A DNA stretch of 64,000 nucleotides. Origin: Fidelibacterota bacterium. Its GTDB lineage: Bacteria > Fidelibacterota > Fidelibacteria > Fidelibacterales > DSDE01. Location: NCBI GenBank assembly GCA_046735395.1, contig JBJKQR010000012.1, positions 21,394 through 85,393 on the forward strand, read 5' to 3'. The notes beneath the pieces were generated by a model. That model did no database searches and was not told where the DNA came from. It saw only the letters and a program-made list of their open reading frames with translations. The position numbers and the translations under genes are program-made. Numbering within the stretch: position 1 is the stretch's first letter; the number at the start of each line of letters is the position of its first letter. Below are positions 19,531 through 53,895 of this stretch, in pieces.

Positions 19531-21387
19531 TTACAGTAAATCAGTCATCAAGGTATTGATACGGTCCACCATCCTGCGGGGATCTATTTTCAGGCCGGCG
19601 GTAAAGAAGGCGTTGTCAGTCACCTGTTCCATCAGGAGGCGCGCCTTTGCCTCATTCTCCTCACTTCCGCTGAGGGTGGCGATTTTCTGGATAAGGGGAT
19701 GGGTGGAATTGATTTCCAGTACCTTTTTCCCGGTCTGGTACATTTCATTCCGGGACGCTTCCAGTATTTTCTGCATATTGGTGGTCATGGCATCATCCGG
19801 ATTGACGATCAGCGCGGGACTGTCAACCAACCGGGTGGAAAGACGGACGTCTGAAAGCCGCGGATCCATATCCTTTTTCAGCCAGTCGAGAAGTTTTTCT
19901 GCAGTCTTTTTTGCGCTTTTTGCCTTCTTGTCATCCGAGGCTGTCGAAGTAAGTTTCACATCGGCCTGGTCTGCGGACATGAGCTTCTTTTCTCCGTATT
20001 CGCGAAGGCTGGTCATCACAAAATCATCAATGGGCTCGTAGAGAAAAAGGACATCCACGTCATTGGCCCGGAAGGTTTCCAGATACGGGCTGCTTTCGAT
20101 TTCCTGCCGCGATGAACCGGTCAGGTAATAGATTTCCTTCTGATCTTCACCGGCGTGAGCCACGTAGTCATCGAGCGAAATCTGTTTTCCCGCTTCGGTC
20201 TTTCTGCTTTCAAACCGCAGCAATGACGCGATATCCTTCGCATTTTCCCAGTCGGAATTGGCCCCTTCCTTCAGGTACATGGAAAAGGTCTTGTAAAATT
20301 CCAGATAGCTGTCCTGGTGTTCCTTCGCCTGGGTCTGGAGAAAACTGATAAGCCGCCTGGTCAGGAATTTTTTCAGTTTGCCGATGATCAGATTGTCCTG
20401 CAGTGTTTCGCGGCTGATATTCAGGGGCAGGTCCTCACTGTCCACGATACCCTTGACGAAGCGAAGATATTCGGGCAGGATTTCCTTGACCTGAGCCTGG
20501 ATCAGAACTTTATTGCAGTACAGGCTGACTCCGGGTTCGCTGCGGTTGAAGCCGAATATTTCCATATTTTCCCGGGGGAAATAGAGGAGCGCATTCAGCT
20601 GAATGGGGGCATCCGAACTGGTGTGAAGCTGAAAGAAGGGGTCGGAGGCGGCATTTTCGTGGAATTTGTAGAATTCCTTGTAATCGTTCTCACTCACATC
20701 CTTCGGTGACTGCGTCCAGATCGGTTTGATGGTATTGACCAGCTCGTCATCCACATAAATGGGAGACGGAACGAAATTGCTGTACTGCTTGATGATCTGC
20801 TTGATCGTATCCTTTTCCAGATATTTGTCGTGATCTTCGGAAAGCTCGACGATGATGCGTGTTCCCCGGGTGATCCCTTCCTCGCGTCCGATGCTGTAGT
20901 CATTGATGCCATCGCTGCTCCATTCCCAGCCTTCCGCATCCTTCTGATAGCTGCGGGTGATGACGCGAACCCGTTTCGCGACCATGAAGGCGGAGTAGAA
21001 ACCGACTCCGAACTGGCCGATGAGCTGACTTTTTTCACTGTCGCCCCGGGACTGGAGATTTTCGAAGAATTTTTCGGTGGAGGAGTGGGCGATGGTTCCC
21101 AGATTTTCGATGAGCTCGTCCCGGGTCATCCCCACACCTGTATCGCTGATCGTCAGAGTGTGCGTATCCTTGCTGATGTCAATCCGTATTTCAAAGGGCA
21201 GATCCTGGTCAGCACCGTCCGGATCTGTCAGGGACAGATAGCGGAATTTCTCTATCGCATCCGACGCATTGGAAATCAGTTCACGAATGAAAATATCGCG
21301 GTTTGTATATAACGAATGAATGACGATGTTCAGGAGTTTCTTTGCCTCGGTCTGGTATTCATAGCTTTGAATCGGTGTTTCTTTCAT
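19531..21387 (-). CDS. htpG: Molecular chaperone HtpG (Hsp90)
   Basis: 618 aa with ELISNASDA and GQFGVGFYSAFMVA, the GHKL ATPase signature of Hsp90. Confidence 0.97.
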   Translation of the reverse strand: MKETPIQSYEYQTEAKKLLNIVIHSLYTNRDIFIRELISNASDAIEKFRYLSLTDPDGADQDLPFEIRIDISKDTHTLTISDTGVGMTRDELIENLGTIAHSSTEKFFENLQSRGDSEKSQLIGQFGVGFYSAFMVAKRVRVITRSYQKDAEGWEWSSDGINDYSIGREEGITRGTRIIVELSEDHDKYLEKDTIKQIIKQYSNFVPSPIYVDDELVNTIKPIWTQSPKDVSENDYKEFYKFHENAASDPFFQLHTSSDAPIQLNALLYFPRENMEIFGFNRSEPGVSLYCNKVLIQAQVKEILPEYLRFVKGIVDSEDLPLNISRETLQDNLIIGKLKKFLTRRLISFLQTQAKEHQDSYLEFYKTFSMYLKEGANSDWENAKDIASLLRFESRKTEAGKQISLDDYVAHAGEDQKEIYYLTGSSRQEIESSPYLETFRANDVDVLFLYEPIDDFVMTSLREYGEKKLMSADQADVKLTSTASDDKKAKSAKKTAEKLLDWLKKDMDPRLSDVRLSTRLVDSPALIVNPDDAMTTNMQKILEASRNEMYQTGKKVLEINSTHPLIQKIATLSGSEENEAKARLLMEQVTDNAFFTAGLKIDPRRMVDRINTLMTDLL

Positions 21388-21503
21388 CTTCTATCCTCTT
21401 TTTTTTAATCCTTTACCACTGGCCACCACGGATGGGCCGATGCGGGTTTCAATTCTATCCTTTGATTCACTTTTCCATGAAAAGTTTCATCACAAAAACG
21501 GTT

Positions 21504-37181: not shown

Positions 37182-38240
37182 ATGAAAATCGTTGTTGCCA
37201 TAAACCCGGGGTCGATGTCGACAAAAATCGGAGTCTTCAGCGAGAAGACCAAGCTGTTCGAAGTGAATACGCCCTTTTTTATGGGTGAACGGCCCAGGAA
37301 TGTTGCGGATGAATTTCCCAACCGGCTGAAAATAATTGAGGAAACGGTCACCCGTTTCTGCCGGGAAAATGAAGTGATCGCCATTGTGGGGCGTGGCGGA
37401 CCTCTGAAGCCGCTGCCCGGCGGTGTCTACAGAGTGAACGGGGATATGCTGGATGATTTGAAAAATGCCCGATACAGTAACCACGCCAGCAATCTCGGAG
37501 CCATTCTGGCGGATTATTTTGCCCGGCGTTATTCCGTTCCGGCGCTGATCGTTGATCCGGTCACCGTTGATGAATTCGATCCGCTGGCCCGTATTTCGGG
37601 TTTTCCGGGCATCGAACGGCGAAGCCGTTCTCACGCGCTCAGTATTCGTGCCACGGTACGCCGATCCTGTGACCGGCATGGATGGAAAATGGAAAAGAAT
37701 AATTTTGTCGTGGCGCATTTAGGCGGAGGCATATCGGTGGCAGCCGTAAAAAAAGGGCAGATCCGGGACGTCAATGACGGATTGCTGGGCATGGGCCCCT
37801 TTTCTCCCGAACGGGCCGGAGCGCTTCCCATCGGCGCGCTGACCGAACTGGCCGCTTCCAGGAAACAGAGTCTGGAAAAACTTCAGCAGTATCTGAGCCG
37901 GGATGCCGGGCTGAAAGGGTATCTGGGCACGGCGGACGCGGTGGAAGTGGAAACGCGTATCGCCCGAGGGGATGAACAGGCTGAATTGATTTACGAGGCC
38001 ATGCTCTACCAGATAAAAAAAGAGATCGGAGCCATGCTGGCTGTCTGTAATTTCAAGGTCAAGGCCGTCCTCATCACGGGCGGGCTGGCGAATTCAGACA
38101 GGGTCTGCAGATATCTGAAGAAGGGACTCGGCCGCCGGAGAGTGGAATTTTATCCCGGTGAAAATGAACTGGAAGCAATGGCTGACGGAGCCTGGAGAGC
38201 ACTCAAAGGCGAGATCGAAATTCAGGAATACAGCAAATGA
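37182..38240 (+). CDS. buk: Butyrate kinase
   Basis: ASKHA-fold N-terminus (KIVVAINPGSMSTKIGVF), HLGGGISV, and a length of 352 aa typical of Buk. Confidence 0.88.
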   Translation: MKIVVAINPGSMSTKIGVFSEKTKLFEVNTPFFMGERPRNVADEFPNRLKIIEETVTRFCRENEVIAIVGRGGPLKPLPGGVYRVNGDMLDDLKNARYSNHASNLGAILADYFARRYSVPALIVDPVTVDEFDPLARISGFPGIERRSRSHALSIRATVRRSCDRHGWKMEKNNFVVAHLGGGISVAAVKKGQIRDVNDGLLGMGPFSPERAGALPIGALTELAASRKQSLEKLQQYLSRDAGLKGYLGTADAVEVETRIARGDEQAELIYEAMLYQIKKEIGAMLAVCNFKVKAVLITGGLANSDRVCRYLKKGLGRRRVEFYPGENELEAMADGAWRALKGEIEIQEYSK

Positions 38241-39106
38241 GATTCGTCGACCTGTATGAACGGATCAATATTGAGGAGCCCCGGCGTCTCAATGTGGTGA
38301 ATCCCCGGAGTGATTCCGTGCTGGATGCCGTTCGCCAGGCTGCTGAAAAAGGGTATGTTATTCCGGTACTTTTCGGTGACGAGAAGATGATTTCAGAAAA
38401 GCTGGAAAAAAATCCCCTGCCCGGCGCTGAAATAATTCATGCTCAGGATGAAGCAGCGGCAGCTGAACTGGCTGTGAAGGATGTTCGAGCCGGCCATGGG
38501 CACCTGTTGATGAAAGGCGATATTCCCACCGCCTCCTTCATGAAACCGGTGCTGAATCGTGATTACGGACTGCGGACCGGTTCGGTGCTGTCCCATATTG
38601 CCGTCGCAGATACGGATTTTGTCGGCAGGCTGATTTTTATCGCCGATGGAGGGATTACGATCCGGCCGGATCTTGACGTAAAACGGGCCATCGCCGCGAA
38701 CACAGCGGTCTTCGCCGAACAATTGCTGGGGAAGAAACCCGTCATGGCGTTTGCAGCTGCCATTGAGGTCATCAATGAGAAAATGCCCGAGACCGGGGAA
38801 GCCAGGATTCTGGCTGAGGAATATGCAAATCGCGGTTATATTGCAGAAGGACCGGTTGCCTTCGATGTTATTTTTTCACAGACTGCAGCGGCAAAGAAGG
38901 GAATCGAAAGCCGGATCAGCGAAAGGACGGATGTCATCATCATGCCGGATATGACAACGGCCAATTTTATGGTGAAACAGTTGATATTTTTCAGTAAGGC
39001 CGCAGTCGGCGGCATTATTGCAGGCGCTTCAGTGCCGTTGATTCTGCTGAGCCGTTCCGATTCTGCCGAGACAAAACTGAATTCCATTATCCTGGGACTT
39101 CTATAA
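38237..39106 (+). CDS. ptb: Phosphate butyryltransferase
   Basis: A 289-aa PTA_PTB-family protein with a 4-nt overlap with buk. Confidence 0.82.
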   Translation: MRFVDLYERINIEEPRRLNVVNPRSDSVLDAVRQAAEKGYVIPVLFGDEKMISEKLEKNPLPGAEIIHAQDEAAAAELAVKDVRAGHGHLLMKGDIPTASFMKPVLNRDYGLRTGSVLSHIAVADTDFVGRLIFIADGGITIRPDLDVKRAIAANTAVFAEQLLGKKPVMAFAAAIEVINEKMPETGEARILAEEYANRGYIAEGPVAFDVIFSQTAAAKKGIESRISERTDVIIMPDMTTANFMVKQLIFFSKAAVGGIIAGASVPLILLSRSDSAETKLNSIILGLL

Positions 39107-39123
39107 AATATTCATGTAACGAA

Positions 39124-39732
39124 ATGGGTGAAATGCAGACTAACACTGTAAATGAAGACGAGCTCATCGACAAGGCAAAAAAAGGCGATAAAAAAGCGCA
39201 GGCGCAGCTGGTCATGAGATACGAAAACCGAATTTACAATCTGGCGCTGAGAATGATGCGCGACAGAGATGATGCGGAAGATGTTCTTCAGGAAACATTT
39301 TTGACCGCGCTCCGAAAGCTCGACAGTTTTGAGGGCAGATCCCAGTTCTTCACCTGGCTGTACCGCATTGCCATGAATATTTCACTGCAGAAACTACGGG
39401 AAAATAAGAAATACGATACGGGACTCAGTCTATCAGATCCGGATTTTGAGAGTCTTCACGGGCAGCATCTGGCCGAATGGCCGGCCTACAGCAAGAATAT
39501 GCTCAGCAACAAGGATTTCCGTCAGCTGCTGGACAGCGCTATCCGGGCTCTGCCGCCCATCTACCGGTCCGTATTCATACTGAGAGATATTGAAGGATTA
39601 TCAACGGAAGAAGCCCGCACACTTCTGGATCTGAGCGACAGCAATGTGAAGGTCCGGCTGATGAGAGCCCGTTTCTTTCTCAGGGAAAAGCTTGAAGAGT
39701 ATTTCCGGGAATCCGGGAGGCAGGGACTATGA
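39124..39732 (+). CDS. ECF-type RNA polymerase sigma factor
   Basis: Region 2 (DAEDVLQETFLTALRKLDSF...FTWLYRIAMN) and region 4 (LPPIYRSVFILRDIEGLSTEEAR). Confidence 0.9.
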   Translation: MGEMQTNTVNEDELIDKAKKGDKKAQAQLVMRYENRIYNLALRMMRDRDDAEDVLQETFLTALRKLDSFEGRSQFFTWLYRIAMNISLQKLRENKKYDTGLSLSDPDFESLHGQHLAEWPAYSKNMLSNKDFRQLLDSAIRALPPIYRSVFILRDIEGLSTEEARTLLDLSDSNVKVRLMRARFFLREKLEEYFRESGRQGL

Positions 39733-40022
39733 CGCATCATCCGAAACATCCGGCGCCTGAACCTGTGACCATCGAGGTCGGACAGGAGATGAAAACTTTC
39801 GAAAAATTCTGCCAGGAACTGGGCAAGGATATTGACCGGGATTTCTGCCGGGAAATCAAGACTGAAATAGAGAATTGTCCCCAGTGCAAAGTCTATTTTG
39901 ACACCATTCGCCGTACAGTGAAACTCTATCAGTCCTGTGAGGAAAACGCGGCTGTGGATGAAGTCCGGGAGGACCGGCTGTTTAAAGTTCTCAACCTGGA
40001 AAAACCCAAAACCGGCAAATAG
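39729..40022 (+). CDS. Putative soluble Cys-rich anti-sigma factor (ZAS/RsrA-like)
   Basis: ATGA overlap with the sigma gene. The protein is 97 aa with no TM helix and has Cys at residues 28, 40, 50, 53 and 70, including ENCPQC (39876-39887). Confidence 0.6.
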   Translation: MTHHPKHPAPEPVTIEVGQEMKTFEKFCQELGKDIDRDFCREIKTEIENCPQCKVYFDTIRRTVKLYQSCEENAAVDEVREDRLFKVLNLEKPKTGK

Positions 40023-40106
40023 CTTTTAATTGTTTATAAAATTGAAAATATGTAAATTTGGCCCAGGATGGCTTGGGTCAGGACACGGTAAGAAAGAGAG
40101 TGATAA

Positions 40107-40367
40107 ATGACAGAACAGAAGAATGCGCGAAGCCCGAAAGTCATCGTATTTACCACCCCGACCTGCACCTACTGCACACAGGTAAAACGGTATCTGCGGG
40201 AGAAACAGGTGAAATTCAAAGAAGTGGATGTGAGCCGGGATGCGAAAGCCGCGATGGACATGCAGCGAAAAACACATCAGCAGGGTGTTCCCCAGCTCTG
40301 GATTGACAATAAACCCATTGTAGGATTTGACAGGCCAAAAATAGATCAAATGTTAAACTTAAAATGA
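40107..40367 (+). CDS. Glutaredoxin-like protein (YruB/NrdH-like)
   Basis: 86 aa with VIVFTTPTCTYCTQVKRYL (CxxC) and the GVPQLWI...GF thioredoxin-fold pattern. Confidence 0.8.
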   Translation: MTEQKNARSPKVIVFTTPTCTYCTQVKRYLREKQVKFKEVDVSRDAKAAMDMQRKTHQQGVPQLWIDNKPIVGFDRPKIDQMLNLK

Positions 40368-40383
40368 AAAACGGAGGACAGAG

Positions 40384-40653
40384 ATGAAAATAAAGCCCCT
40401 CGATGATCGTATTCTGATCAAAGCTCTGCCGGAAGAAGAAAAGACTGCCGGCGGAATTATCATTCCTGATACTGCAAAAGAAAAACCCCGTGTAGCCGAA
40501 GTTGTGGCCGTCGGGACTGACGAAGATCTGAAAGAGGTTATTTCCGTCGGGATGAAGGTTCTGTTCGGAAAATACTCCGGAGAAGAGATCAAGGTTGATG
40601 GTGAAGAATATACCTTGCTTCAGCGGAGTGATGTTCTCGCTATCGTAGAGTAA
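40384..40653 (+). CDS. groS: Co-chaperonin GroES
   Basis: 89 aa with IKPLDDRILIK and the mobile loop EEKTAGGIIIPDTAKEKP. Confidence 0.95.
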   Translation: MKIKPLDDRILIKALPEEEKTAGGIIIPDTAKEKPRVAEVVAVGTDEDLKEVISVGMKVLFGKYSGEEIKVDGEEYTLLQRSDVLAIVE

Positions 40654-40722
40654 TTTCTGACTATGACGGGGGTGGCCGGGCTGCCCCCGTTTACTTTTCC
40701 TTAAGTATTGCTGGGAGTTCAG

Positions 40723-42078
40723 ATGAGTCAAAGGCTAGTGATTGTAGGTGGCGACGCGGCAGGGATGTCTGCCGCAAGCAAAGCGAAACGCGTCAGTCCT
40801 GACGCTGAAGTCGTTGTGCTTGAAAAAGGCAGATTTATCTCTTATGCTGCCTGCGGTATTCCATACTATATCGGAGGTCTGGTCAGCGATTGGCAGGACC
40901 TGCTCATCCTGAGCCCGAAGGCGGCGCGCGAAGGGCGAAAAATAGATGTGCGGCTTCATCATCTGGTGGAGTCCTTCGACCCCAAGACCCGGATTGTCCG
41001 CGGAAAAAATCTGGAGGATGGCTCGGCCTTCGAACTGAGTTATGATAAACTCATCCTGGCCACAGGCGCCCGTCCGGTCATACCCAAGATCCAGGGCATG
41101 GATCTCCCGGGTGTTTTCACACTGAGAAACATTGACGACGGCCTCGCGATTCGGAAATATATTGACGAAAACAAACCTGCGACGGCAATCGTCGTCGGGG
41201 GCGGCTATATCGGCCTGGAAATGCTGGAAGCCTTTCACCGTCAGGGCATCAAACTGACGATTATTGAACGGCTCGACCGGATCATGGTGACGGTTGATGA
41301 AGAAATCGCCCAGCTGGTTGAAGAGGAAATCCGCCGCCATGGCATTGATATTTTATTGCGGACAACGCTGGTCGGTATCCGGAAGGGACGGGAAAATCTG
41401 GAAGTCCTGCTGGCCGGCGGGCCCGGTAAGATGCAGGCGGATATGGTCCTCGTATCTGCCGGTGTTCAGCCGAATTCCGAGCTGGCGAAGGAAGCCGGCG
41501 CACGACTGGGCCGCAGCAATGCGATCCGCATCAATGAAAAGATGGAAACGACCCTGCCGAATGTCTACGCGGCCGGTGACTGCGTGGAACATAAACATAT
41601 CATCAGCGGCAGAAATACCTATATCCCGCTGGCACCCGCTGCCAATAAGGGTGGACGGGTCGCAGGCGAAAATGCTGTCGGTGGCGAAGTGGATTTTCCC
41701 GGAGTCATCGGGACCAGTATCACCAAAGTCTTTGACCTGGAAGTGGCGCGCACCGGACTGTCCTATCGCGACACGTCCGAGACCATTTATTCCAAAGTGA
41801 AACAGATAACCATCGTGGAGAAGACGAAAGCGCGGTATTTTCCGGGGACGGATAATCTTACCATACGACTGGTCGTGGACAAACGCAGCAACAAGCTTCT
41901 GGGTGCCCAGATTATCGGGAAGGAAGGCGCCGGAAAGCGTATTGATGTCTTTGCCGTAGCCATACAACAAAATATGAAACTTGAAGATATTGCCAATCTG
42001 GATCTGGCTTATGCGCCGCCCTTTTCTCCGGTGTATGATCCCATCCTGATTTCGGCGTATGTGGGATTGCGAAAATGA
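40723..42078 (+). CDS. Pyridine nucleotide-disulfide oxidoreductase, CoA-disulfide reductase/NADH oxidase family
   Basis: FAD motif VIVGGDAAG, a single redox Cys in SYAACGIPYY, NAD motif VVGGGYIGLE and YAAGDC. The ATG at 40723 follows GGGAG. Confidence 0.85.
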   Translation: MSQRLVIVGGDAAGMSAASKAKRVSPDAEVVVLEKGRFISYAACGIPYYIGGLVSDWQDLLILSPKAAREGRKIDVRLHHLVESFDPKTRIVRGKNLEDGSAFELSYDKLILATGARPVIPKIQGMDLPGVFTLRNIDDGLAIRKYIDENKPATAIVVGGGYIGLEMLEAFHRQGIKLTIIERLDRIMVTVDEEIAQLVEEEIRRHGIDILLRTTLVGIRKGRENLEVLLAGGPGKMQADMVLVSAGVQPNSELAKEAGARLGRSNAIRINEKMETTLPNVYAAGDCVEHKHIISGRNTYIPLAPAANKGGRVAGENAVGGEVDFPGVIGTSITKVFDLEVARTGLSYRDTSETIYSKVKQITIVEKTKARYFPGTDNLTIRLVVDKRSNKLLGAQIIGKEGAGKRIDVFAVAIQQNMKLEDIANLDLAYAPPFSPVYDPILISAYVGLRK

Positions 42079-42551
42079 AAAAATATCTCCCGGTGCTCCT
42101 GCTTATCCTGACAGCAGTAACTCTGACGGCCCAGGATCTGAAAAGCGAGCGGCAGATCAATCTGGAAAAACAGCTCATGGCGCCCTGCTGTTACGGCGGC
42201 GCGATTTATGATCATGAGTCCGGAGTCGCCGACCAGATGAAACGCGATATTGCCATCATGATCAAGGATGGCAAGTCAGATGATGAAATACTGGCTCATT
42301 ACGAAGCGGAATACGGGGAAAAAATCCTGGCTACACCCAAGGCGAAAGGGTTTAACCTCGCCGCCTGGTGGGTTCCGGCTGTACTGGGAATCCTGGCCCT
42401 CCTTGGCTATATCCTGTATACGCTGACCATGAAGACCCGAAAGCTCTCCGGTGTAGCAGACGCAGATGTCAGTGCCGACGTTCCGGAGGCATCACTGGAT
42501 ATATCGTCTATAATCGACAGGGAACTGGATGAATTCAAAAAGAACAATTGA
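42075..42551 (+). CDS. CcmH/NrfF-like membrane-anchored protein with non-canonical APCC motif
   Basis: The layout is signal peptide, APCCYGGAIYDHES...KDGKSDDEILAHYEAEYGEKIL, then a C-terminal TM helix. It is collinear with the E. coli CcmH N-domain but with LRCPKC replaced by LMAPCC. ATGA overlap with the upstream reductase. Confidence 0.6.
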   Translation: MKKYLPVLLLILTAVTLTAQDLKSERQINLEKQLMAPCCYGGAIYDHESGVADQMKRDIAIMIKDGKSDDEILAHYEAEYGEKILATPKAKGFNLAAWWVPAVLGILALLGYILYTLTMKTRKLSGVADADVSADVPEASLDISSIIDRELDEFKKNN

Positions 42552-42744
42552 TGAAAATATACTGATTGAAGAGCTGGTGGAGGAATTTCCTCAGCTCGTC
42601 CGGCCGCTGATGGAATACGGTATTGTCTGCCTCGTCTGCGGTGAACCGGCCTGGGGAACACTCCGGGAACAGGCTGAATCTAAAAATATTACCAATCTAC
42701 CTGAAATTCTCGTGAATCTGAATCACCTGATTCAGACGGAATAA
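42529..42744 (+). CDS. DUF1858 / hybrid-cluster-protein-associated redox disulfide domain protein
   Basis: 71 aa with IEELVEEFPQL...GIVCLVCGEPAWGTL (CxxC). It overlaps the upstream gene by 23 nt. Confidence 0.7.
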   Translation: MNSKRTIDENILIEELVEEFPQLVRPLMEYGIVCLVCGEPAWGTLREQAESKNITNLPEILVNLNHLIQTE

Positions 42745-52926: not shown

Positions 52927-53031
52927 TTCGTTGTAGGGGCGGGAAGAAAAGCCGGTGTGACCGGATGAGCATTCCGGTAACTCTTTCAAGCCCGTGTGTG
53001 TCTAACCGGGAAAAACAGGTAAGGAGAACTG

Positions 53032-53895
53032 ATGCGGAAGTTATGGATGATATGTCTCGCAGTACCGTTGCTGATGGGTTCCTGTAAGGAAGAAGTTGTC
53101 AGTCAGATGTCTGCAGCGCCCCCGGCCATTGACGGGGATCTGAGTGATTGGGGCGGCGATTTGATCATATATCAGGAGGAAGGTGTCGTCTGCGGACTGA
53201 GCCATGATGAGTCACATCTCTATCTGGCTCTCAGCAGCCGGAAACCGGAAACACTTCGTGCCATCATGCGCTCCGGACTGACGGTCTGGCTGAATGATCA
53301 GGGGAGATCCAAAAAAAGTTTCGGGATTCAGTACCCGCTGCCCATGAACCGGGAAGAATTCCGGGCACTTCGCCGTACGGGTTCAGGCGGCAGATCTCAT
53401 CAGAACGGGGGAAACCGGGATTGGCAGAATCCGGAGAACAGAAACCGGATGATGGCAAAATTATTCGGAGAGTATCTCAGCACACAGACAGATTTTTCGC
53501 TTCTCAGCGGCCCCGGCCATGTCGAATCGCAACAGGCACTGAGCGTCAGTGAGTCCATCAAGGCCGCAGTTACATTCAGGGACGGCCAGTTCAGTTATGA
53601 ATTGTCCATACCCTTTGATGACGCGGAGGACGGAACGATGGCTTTGCATAAGAATCCCAAATCCCGTTATAATATAGGGATAGAAATTCCCGCACCCGAT
53701 TTGACCCGGATGCGTGGAGGACGTCCAATGGGGGATGGAATGTCCGGCGGAATGTCAGGTGGCGGCATGAGCGGCGGATCCTTTGATGGCGGCGGACAAT
53801 TCTCCGGGTCCGGAATGAGGCAGGGAGGAGACCGGTCGCGTTATCCGCAGCAGACAGATGTTGAGCTGTGGCTCAAGGTGCGCTGTACTCCCTGA
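53032..53895 (+). CDS. Hypothetical lipoprotein with Gly/Met-rich repeat tail
   Basis: Signal peptide with a lipobox (LLMGSC), an IDGDLSDWGG motif and a C-terminal GDGMSGGMSGGGMSGGSFDGGG low-complexity segment. Confidence 0.6.
   Translation: MRKLWMICLAVPLLMGSCKEEVVSQMSAAPPAIDGDLSDWGGDLIIYQEEGVVCGLSHDESHLYLALSSRKPETLRAIMRSGLTVWLNDQGRSKKSFGIQYPLPMNREEFRALRRTGSGGRSHQNGGNRDWQNPENRNRMMAKLFGEYLSTQTDFSLLSGPGHVESQQALSVSESIKAAVTFRDGQFSYELSIPFDDAEDGTMALHKNPKSRYNIGIEIPAPDLTRMRGGRPMGDGMSGGMSGGGMSGGSFDGGGQFSGSGMRQGGDRSRYPQQTDVELWLKVRCTP

Follow-up and report, generated by a model that had tools for sequence, protein, structure and literature searches.

Does a sigma factor locus of a Fidelibacterota bacterium encode a thiol-sensing switch of the SigR/RsrA kind? 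Thiol-sensing anti-sigma factors of the zinc-binding anti-sigma (ZAS) type have, to our knowledge, been characterized almost only in Actinobacteria. The locus lies in a 64,000-nucleotide stretch of contig JBJKQR010000012.1 (hereafter, the window) and consists of a gene for a sigma factor of the extracytoplasmic function (ECF) type, a gene for a 97-aa protein with five cysteines, and, further downstream, genes for a glutaredoxin, GroES, and other thiol-related proteins. An earlier note on this DNA proposed that these genes form a self-contained SigR/RsrA-like disulfide-stress module with an atypical sensor. Our analysis suggests that the locus is probably a thiol-redox ECF module of a new group, present here in a derived form. 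Judged by sequence comparison, this ECF group is an uncharacterized one that occurs in Calditrichota, Marinimicrobia, Ignavibacteria-like, Anaerolineae, Thermodesulfobacteriota, and Acidobacteria metagenome-assembled genomes (MAGs). The comparative evidence thus points to a separate, widespread ECF group (in the Fibrobacteres-Chlorobi-Bacteroidetes [FCB] group, Chloroflexota, and others) that would follow SigR/RsrA logic and has a directly testable promoter motif.

The 97-aa protein belongs to a family of anti-sigma factors

The open reading frames (ORFs) and coordinates given in the earlier note were all recovered. The sigma gene (39124-39732, + strand) encodes a 202-aa ECF (group 4) sigma-70 factor, as seen from its matches to Sigma70_r2 (PF04542, 64 bits), Sigma70_r4_2 (PF08281, 52.7 bits), and TIGR02937 (98.1 bits, cutoff 42.9). 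No equivalog model attained its cutoff with this protein, the best being PRK11922 (167 versus 204), and the score on the SigW model PRK09641 (138 bits) was under the cutoff of 209. The sigma factor is 79% identical to its counterparts in two related lineages (L083 and L086) and 43 to 54% identical to those of 160 other loci, and its nearest wider relatives are found in Calditrichota and other FCB-group MAGs (50 to 54%).

The gene for the 97-aa protein (39729-40022, + strand) begins within the end of the sigma gene, its ATG overlapping the sigma TGA (ctATGAcg), as had been reported. Also in agreement with the earlier note, the protein has five cysteines (C28, C40, C50, C53, and C70, with the spacing C-x11-C-x9-CPQC) and no hydrophobic stretch long enough for a transmembrane (TM) helix. 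Searches with this single sequence yielded little: no Pfam family was matched, zf-HC2 (PF13490) included, the PDB gave chance matches only, a word-indexed homologue search returned only the query itself, and the RsrA model TIGR03988 matched weakly (16.8 bits, E value of 0.0055, cutoff 62.5). An exhaustive HMMER search found 107 homologues (E<1e-3), nearly all of 75 to 120 aa. Most relatives carry Pfam zf-HC2, and they are named in their sources as anti-sigma RsiW, YlaD, or TIGR02949 family proteins.

In Calditrichota, Marinimicrobia, Anaerolineae, and other phyla, members of this large family (size range of ~80 to 100 aa) are encoded after related sigma genes. At 160 loci the ORF after a related sigma gene is a member of the anti-sigma family. 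Because the pairing of sigma factor and small protein recurs at well over 100 loci of several phyla, the arrangement is not due to chance. A profile built from 93 members matched two solved structures, the cytoplasmic domain of RsiW (5wuq, E value of 6.6e-10) and RsrA (5frf, E value of 1.9e-4), so that the comparison with ZAS/RsrA proposed in the earlier note came out positive at the level of the family. AlphaFold2 modeling with the family alignment gave four helices (residues 21-30, 38-49, 51-72, and 78-87) with a mean predicted local distance difference test (pLDDT) score of 78. By homology, then, the 97-aa protein is a soluble class I anti-sigma factor of the ZAS (zf-HC2) lineage, distantly related to both RsrA and RsiW, and the ECF sigma factor and the 97-aa protein are a real sigma/anti-sigma pair.

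From buk to the acetyl-CoA hydrolase gene, the genes are arranged as in the two related lineages, L082-L085 and L086 (79% sigma identity). The order of the seven genes from the sigma gene to the last thiol-related gene recurs only in these close relatives, where the whole neighborhood is syntenic, including buk, ptb, and the genes for AlaDH and acetyl-CoA hydrolase. We therefore set this synteny aside as evidence of functional linkage, since the entire neighborhood is collinear; although it says little about function, the collinear relatives can be used for footprinting.

Family promoter motif and predicted regulon

Dyad enrichment in the regions upstream of the sigma homologues revealed one strongly enriched bipartite motif, tGTAAC(yTTT)-N16/17-CATC(T/A)AA (p about 1e-24). 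It precedes the sigma gene at 49 of 80 genome loci, with a spacer of 16 or 17 nt and a single 18-nt exception; the consensus promoter of a Calditrichota trx gene reads tGTAAC-N16-TGCATCAAA. Used as a position weight matrix (PWM), the motif found 149 sites scoring ≥19 in 1.37 Mb of related loci, as opposed to 3 to 4 in shuffled sequences.

Leaving out the sigma factor's own promoter, 66 of these sites lie no more than 150 nt from an ORF. In 24 cases the ORF encodes a thioredoxin (WCAPC/WCGPC), whose gene usually comes next after the anti-sigma gene (Calditrichota) or next before the sigma gene (Marinimicrobia). A YruB-type glutaredoxin was found in 10 cases (Anaerolineae), small zinc-ribbon ORFs with CPKC...CxxC in 12, and PDO-like double-thioredoxin-fold proteins in at least 4, while the remainder include OsmC, a Pyr_redox_2 flavoprotein, an ArsM-like methyltransferase, and YgaP-like proteins. 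In Anaerolineae, homologues of the window glutaredoxin (47 to 61% identity) are encoded directly after the anti-sigma gene with their own copy of the ECF motif, and at several of these loci DUF1858 follows grx; both families also occur in the window.

The family sigma factor is thus predicted to recognize tGTAAC-N16/17-CATC(T/A)AA, with its own operon and thioredoxin-fold and peroxide-defense genes as predicted targets. Since the motif stands before thioredoxin-fold genes in relatives, a thiol-redox regulon is backed independently and across phyla, and the disulfide-stress reading is supported by these promoter assignments at the level of the family. The SigR/RsrA-like module of the earlier note therefore holds in part: in relatives the motif precedes trx, grx, PDO-like, and OsmC genes, but in the window it precedes neither grx nor the CoA-disulfide reductase (CoADR) gene.

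Two additional features were seen in Anaerolineae. Second predicted targets there are most often the CPKC...CxxC ORFs, which are 63 to 70 aa long, zinc-ribbon-like, and without a solid Pfam family (L043, L047, L057, L061, L062, L070, L152-L154, L159, and L161). Several sigma factors (L040, L047, L054, L056, and L060) have a vicinal Cys-Cys pair in the linker between sigma-2 and sigma-4 (DWCCLPE or DFCCLPE), where the window sigma factor has AEWPAYS.

The window anti-sigma factor has Glu at two ligand positions

In the numbering used here, position 0 is the His of the ZAS motif HxxxCxxC. As the earlier note had it, Glu46 occupies this position in the window protein, which reads E46-x3-C50-x2-C53 in place of H-x3-C-x2-C; of 93 homologues, 74 have His there and 5 have Glu. 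The fourth ZAS ligand is a Cys or His located 23 to 26 residues before the His (PMC4960319). The window protein has neither residue from -26 to -23, and its position -26 is E20. The proposed parallel between C28 and RsrA Cys11 was off by 8 residues: C28 lies at -18 and is a family-specific Cys (66 of 93 members), and the slot of Cys11 is taken by E20. Two other cysteines do have RsrA counterparts, namely, C40 (position -6, present in 89 of 93 members), which corresponds to RsrA C31, and C70 (+17), which aligns with RsrA C61 by the spacing read from the sequence.

Among 203 family members, the -26/0 ligand pair is Cys/His (the RsrA “CHCC” type) in 126, His/His (“HHCC” type) in 54, and another residue with His in 12. 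The Glu/Glu pair was found in two of the 203, the window protein and P0002, and an ORF in L086 is a third such member. In 17 of the 19 family cases without the His, the N-terminal ligand is missing as well.

All five cysteines and both glutamates (E20 and E46) are identical across the three lineages (window, L083, and L086), although the anti-sigma factors themselves are only 48 to 54% identical in the multiple alignment (51 to 65% in tblastn segments), which disfavors simple decay. The neighboring genes are much better conserved among these lineages (sigma factor, 79%; glutaredoxin, 84%; GroES, 94%; CoADR, 83 to 84%). The Glu/Glu pair may be read in two ways: carboxylates may serve as ligands in a rebuilt metal site, or the site may be gone and the CxxC retained for some other reason. 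As a natural “ligand-swap” variant (Glu, Glu, Cys, Cys), the window clade could separate what a ZAS domain needs for metal binding from what it needs for redox sensing.

Transcription signals at the locus

Several observations weigh against a thiol-redox module in the window. The residues flanking the CxxC that determine redox sensitivity in RsrA are E39, E40, L45, and E46 (Jung 2011, PMC3177212), and of the corresponding E48, N49, K54, and V55 of the window protein only one (E48) matches. The Cys11-equivalent ligand is essential for redox sensing by RsrA (Rajasekar 2016, PMC4960319). With Glu20 in its slot and one of four redox determinants matched, the canonical RsrA mechanism cannot operate as such. 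Zinc and non-zinc members are known to occur together in some class I anti-sigma groups, where the motif may be structural only (Casas-Pastor et al. 2020, PMC7406223). Foldseek found no structural match for the AlphaFold2 model in the PDB, a result that is uninformative on homology because small helical anti-sigma domains change shape on binding. We found no experimental study of any family member in the literature searched, and the regulon and the signal are predictions. Finally, the family PWM gave no match above the shuffle range over the 64-kb window and none before grx or CoADR, and autoregulation of the sigma gene in the window is doubtful, since transcription from the TGTAAC at 39115-39120 is predicted to start at ~39150, and both in-frame ATGs of the sigma ORF (39124 and 39133) come before this point.

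This TGTAAC belongs to a degenerate copy of the ECF promoter, TGTAAC-N19-CTAA (39115..39143, + strand), which extends into the sigma ORF at its annotated 5' end and equals the family motif without the “CAT” of CATCTAA. Across the three lineages, TGTAAC and CTAA are invariant and the spacer is exactly 19 nt long, while the spacer sequence has diverged. In a relaxed, clade-specific pattern scan made after the null result with the PWM, it was the sole match to TG[TCA]AAC-N19-20-CTAA on both strands of the window (0.61 expected). In the alignment, the GTA at 39148 stands opposite the ATG with which the L083 gene starts and opposite a TTG of L086. An ECF promoter inside the 5' end of the sigma gene may yield induced transcripts for the anti-sigma factor, glutaredoxin, and GroES without full-length sigma factor, an unusual possibility that, if true, would mean built-in negative feedback. 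The sigma ATG lies 17 nt after the ptb stop codon, and no terminator-like site was predicted between the two genes. Together with the position of the ECF start after the ATGs, this suggests that full-length sigma mRNA is probably provided by read-through from buk-ptb.

The gap between the anti-sigma gene and grx is 84 nt long (40023-40106). In all three lineages an invariant AGCTTTTAATTG block lies directly after the anti-sigma stop codon, and the upstream region contains TTG(A/T)TT-N17-TAAATT, whose hexamers are conserved and separated by an exact 17-nt spacer of variable sequence (in the window, TTGTTT at 40030-40035 and TAAATT at 40053-40058). The second element can also be read as TAAATTTG, which we take to be the Bacteroidetes-type sigma-A “-7” consensus TAnnTTTG. 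From the three-way alignment we infer that this region (40021..40060, + strand) includes a housekeeping-type promoter for grx-groES, with a predicted transcript start near 40065. The search for a shared ECF motif in the 84-nt gap and upstream of the sigma gene, which the earlier note had suggested, was thus successful at the sigma gene, where the degenerate copy lies, and gave nothing before grx.

Conserved TGTAAA/GTTAAA...GGGTCA blocks upstream of grx were not accepted as an ECF promoter, as they are spaced 2 to 3 nt too far apart and L083 lacks the C. The grx leader contains a hairpin (UUGGCCCAGG/CUUGGGUCAG, 40058..40081, + strand; -15.2 kcal/mol, z -2.9) that shows a compensatory change from CCCA/TGGG to CCCG/CGGG in L086 and is absent in L083; having no U-tract, it is not a terminator.

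After groES, the three lineages share a GC-rich hairpin followed by a U-tract, with stem sequences that differ. In the window this intrinsic terminator (40665..40701, + strand) has a 12-bp GC-rich stem before the U-rich tract. Its predicted energy is -21.4 kcal/mol (z -3.1), compared with -16.2 in L083 and -28.8 in L086 (z -3.1 to -5.6 over the three). No promoter could be recognized between the terminator and CoADR, where ~20 to 25 nt separate the U-tract from the ribosome-binding site. These signals point to two putative units. The first would be (buk-ptb-)sigma-antisigma-grx-groES, with an internal promoter before grx and its end at the 40665-40701 terminator; the second, CoADR-CcmH-DUF1858, would be reached by read-through of the terminator or from an unrecognized promoter, its genes being read-through partners at most. 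The “self-contained regulon” of the earlier note is hence not supported in the window, given that no ECF-type promoter precedes grx or CoADR, that grx-groES has a conserved housekeeping-type promoter, and that a conserved terminator follows groES.

Proposed mechanism and alternative readings

If the locus is a thiol-redox module, the anti-sigma factor would sequester the sigma factor in an inactive state, and oxidation of conserved anti-sigma cysteines would set it free. Candidate pairs are C50/C53 with C40 or C28; alternatively, the disulfide could form between C28 and C40, which, judged by the predicted secondary structure, should be neighbors at the loop end of the helix 1/2 hairpin. Transcription would then proceed through the sigma, anti-sigma, grx, and groES genes up to the terminator at 40665-40701, and the glutaredoxin could re-reduce and thereby reset the sensor. 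It is also conceivable, though improbable in our estimation, that the ZAS metal site was rebuilt as a Glu2Cys2 site (E20 and E46 plus the CxxC) with a different metal and oxidant chemistry, for example, Fe(II)- or O2/H2O2-reactive in an anaerobe. Such a site, if real, would give class I anti-sigma domains a new mode of sensing.

The most serious alternative, which we consider possible but unlikely, is a metal-free and redox-blind anti-sigma factor. According to this view, the clade lost its zinc site, the sigma factor is controlled by proteolysis, by a partner protein, or by the level of buk-ptb read-through, and the thiol genes are inherited context with mainly their own housekeeping promoter. 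Two of the four ligands are indeed lost, in line with the coupled loss of His and the -26 ligand in 17 of 19 cases, and the anti-sigma factor evolves faster than its neighbors. The degenerate and badly placed ECF promoter, the housekeeping-type promoter of grx, and the precedent of mixed zinc/non-zinc anti-sigma domain (ASD) groups (PMC7406223) would also be expected of such a locus, which, with the site simply dead, would be an ordinary decayed sigma/anti-sigma pair. But the strict conservation of five cysteines and two glutamates in three lineages argues against this view, as does the replacement of both lost ligands by the same residue, Glu, and not by arbitrary ones. TGTAAC and CTAA are likewise invariant despite divergence of the spacer, and the order of an anti-sigma gene followed by a thioredoxin-fold gene is kept as in the wider family.

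A canonical RsrA-like zinc-thiolate switch appears very unlikely. Here, zinc would be bound by C28, E46, C50, and C53, and a C28-C53 trigger disulfide would expel the metal and free the sigma factor. The homology of the family to RsrA, the CHCC pattern of most members, the alignment of C40 and C70 with RsrA C31 and C61, and the weak TIGR03988 match are compatible with such a switch. However, C28 is found at -18, outside the -23 to -26 range (PMC4960319), with a Glu at -26, and the helix-hairpin model, whose geometry is predicted, would place C28 (end of helix 1) by C40 (start of helix 2), opposite the C50/C53 site; nor is the window protein recognized by zf-HC2.

The view that the 97-aa ORF is an unrelated small Cys-rich protein that follows the sigma gene by coincidence is effectively refuted, for although it agrees with the missing Pfam and Foldseek matches, the protein has 107 homologues (E<1e-3) that always follow a related sigma gene, its profile matches RsiW and RsrA, and its relatives carry zf-HC2.

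Comparison with known systems

The thiol-redox module favored here is closest in organization to SigR/RsrA of Streptomyces coelicolor and SigH/RshA of mycobacteria (ECF12 with a soluble CHCC ZAS protein), in which an ECF sigma factor is likewise followed by a small, soluble, single-domain anti-sigma factor of the ZAS lineage. Most family members share the Cys(-26)/His/Cys/Cys ligands with RsrA, the cysteines at -6 and +17 match RsrA C31 and C61, and the predicted regulon comprises thioredoxin-fold genes and the sigma factor's own operon. The SigR promoter is GGAAT-N18-GTT, which differs from the tGTAAC-N16/17-CATC of the present family. Other differences are the phyla concerned, the lack of a mycothiol context, and the extra conserved Cys at -18; the window copy deviates further, with Glu in the slots of both Cys11 and His37, a TIGR03988 score of 16.8 against a cutoff of 62.5, and one of the four redox determinants. 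Considering these features, the present group seems analogous in function to the SigR/RsrA switch of Actinobacteria but is not a member of that family, as far as sequences can tell.

In sequence, the family profile matches RsiW of Bacillus subtilis best (the partner of SigW, with an HHCC ZAS domain, PDB 5wuq; E value of 6.6e-10). RsiW is membrane anchored, is freed through regulated proteolysis, and does not respond to thiol oxidants (PMC3177212, PMC5358783), unlike the present proteins in that these have neither a TM segment nor an extracytoplasmic domain. In the groups AS27 and AS19-1 (PMC7406223), as in the family described here, most members have Hx3Cx2C and a minority has lost it. Because mixed zinc/non-zinc groups have already been described, loss of the His alone is not new. 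The situation in the window clade, where both lost ligands became Glu, the change is conserved across the clade, and the CxxC is kept, is not described in PMC7406223. In the literature searched, we found no paper describing an ECF group with such a gene context, which does not prove that none exists.

Neighboring genes and additional observations

All genes from the sigma gene to the DUF1858-like gene lie on one strand (+), as do the two genes before them, a butyrate-kinase-like gene (buk, 37182-38240; Pfam Acetate_kinase) and a phosphate-butyryltransferase-like gene (ptb, 38237-39106; Pfam PTA_PTB). The co-directional downstream gene set named in the earlier note (CTYC glutaredoxin, groES, CoADR family, CcmH-like, and CxxC DUF1858) was confirmed. 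The glutaredoxin-like protein (40107-40367) has the active site CTYC and is of the YruB type (PF00462, 70.7 bits; TIGR02196, 88.1 versus a cutoff of 88.55). The groES gene (40384-40653) encodes a Cpn10 protein (PF00166, 100.8 bits; NF001531, 116.9 versus a cutoff of 96). No groEL gene is adjacent to it, and no other window ORF of Cpn60 size (around 500 to 550 aa) matched Cpn60 in a comparison with Pfam.

The next gene encodes a flavoprotein of the CoA-disulfide reductase/NADH oxidase family (PF07992, 217 bits; TIGR03385, 482 versus a cutoff of 578.8; PRK09564, 428.5 versus 458). Its start is most likely the ATG at 40723, which would give a 451-aa product (40723..42078), and not the TTG at 40708. 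The enzyme, described earlier as a single-Cys protein, does have the active-site Cys in SYAACGIPY but contains two cysteines in total; its sequence does not separate CoADR from NADH oxidase or peroxidase. The last three genes overlap each other as reported, CoADR and the CcmH-like gene by 4 nt and the latter and the DUF1858-like gene by 23 nt.

The CcmH-like protein (42075-42551; PF03918, 70.4 bits) has a signal-like N terminus and a hydrophobic C-terminal segment and is therefore not cytoplasmic but exported or membrane anchored. When aligned to the CcmH structures 2hl7 and 2kw0, its active site reads M-A-P-C-C against R-C-P-K-C of Pseudomonas aeruginosa and Escherichia coli CcmH. The first Cys of the periplasmic CXXC (LRCPKC) is thus replaced by Ala, leaving a vicinal Cys pair, and the same APCC is present in the L086 protein. 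Its designation as a CcmH-like thiol protein is hence sound as to the family, but APCC replaces CPKC and the protein lies outside the cytoplasm. The small DUF1858-like protein (42529-42744) contains CLVC and scores below the cutoffs of both PF08984 (24.3 versus 32.2) and TIGR03980 (26.2 versus 44.95).

No RNA family of Rfam was found in the window. The gap between ptb and the sigma gene, about 10 to 17 nt in the window and L086, is about 280 nt long in L083 (1790-2066), where aaggagcaaggcaaaagg-type tandem repeats flanking a run of N fill it. A relaxed match to the promoter pattern, GTAAC-N20-CTAA, occurs at the intergenic site 52977-53005 and precedes by 27 nt an uncharacterized 287-aa ORF (53032-53895) that has a signal-like N terminus and no Pfam family; by chance, the window should contain about three relaxed matches of this kind. 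The best window match of the family PWM is gaTGAAACttttcatggaaaagTGAATCAAAg (21462-21491, - strand), an intergenic site that precedes htpG (Hsp90, 19531-21387) by ~74 nt; scoring 15.7, it does not rise above the shuffle range and is no more than a lead to a possible chaperone target.

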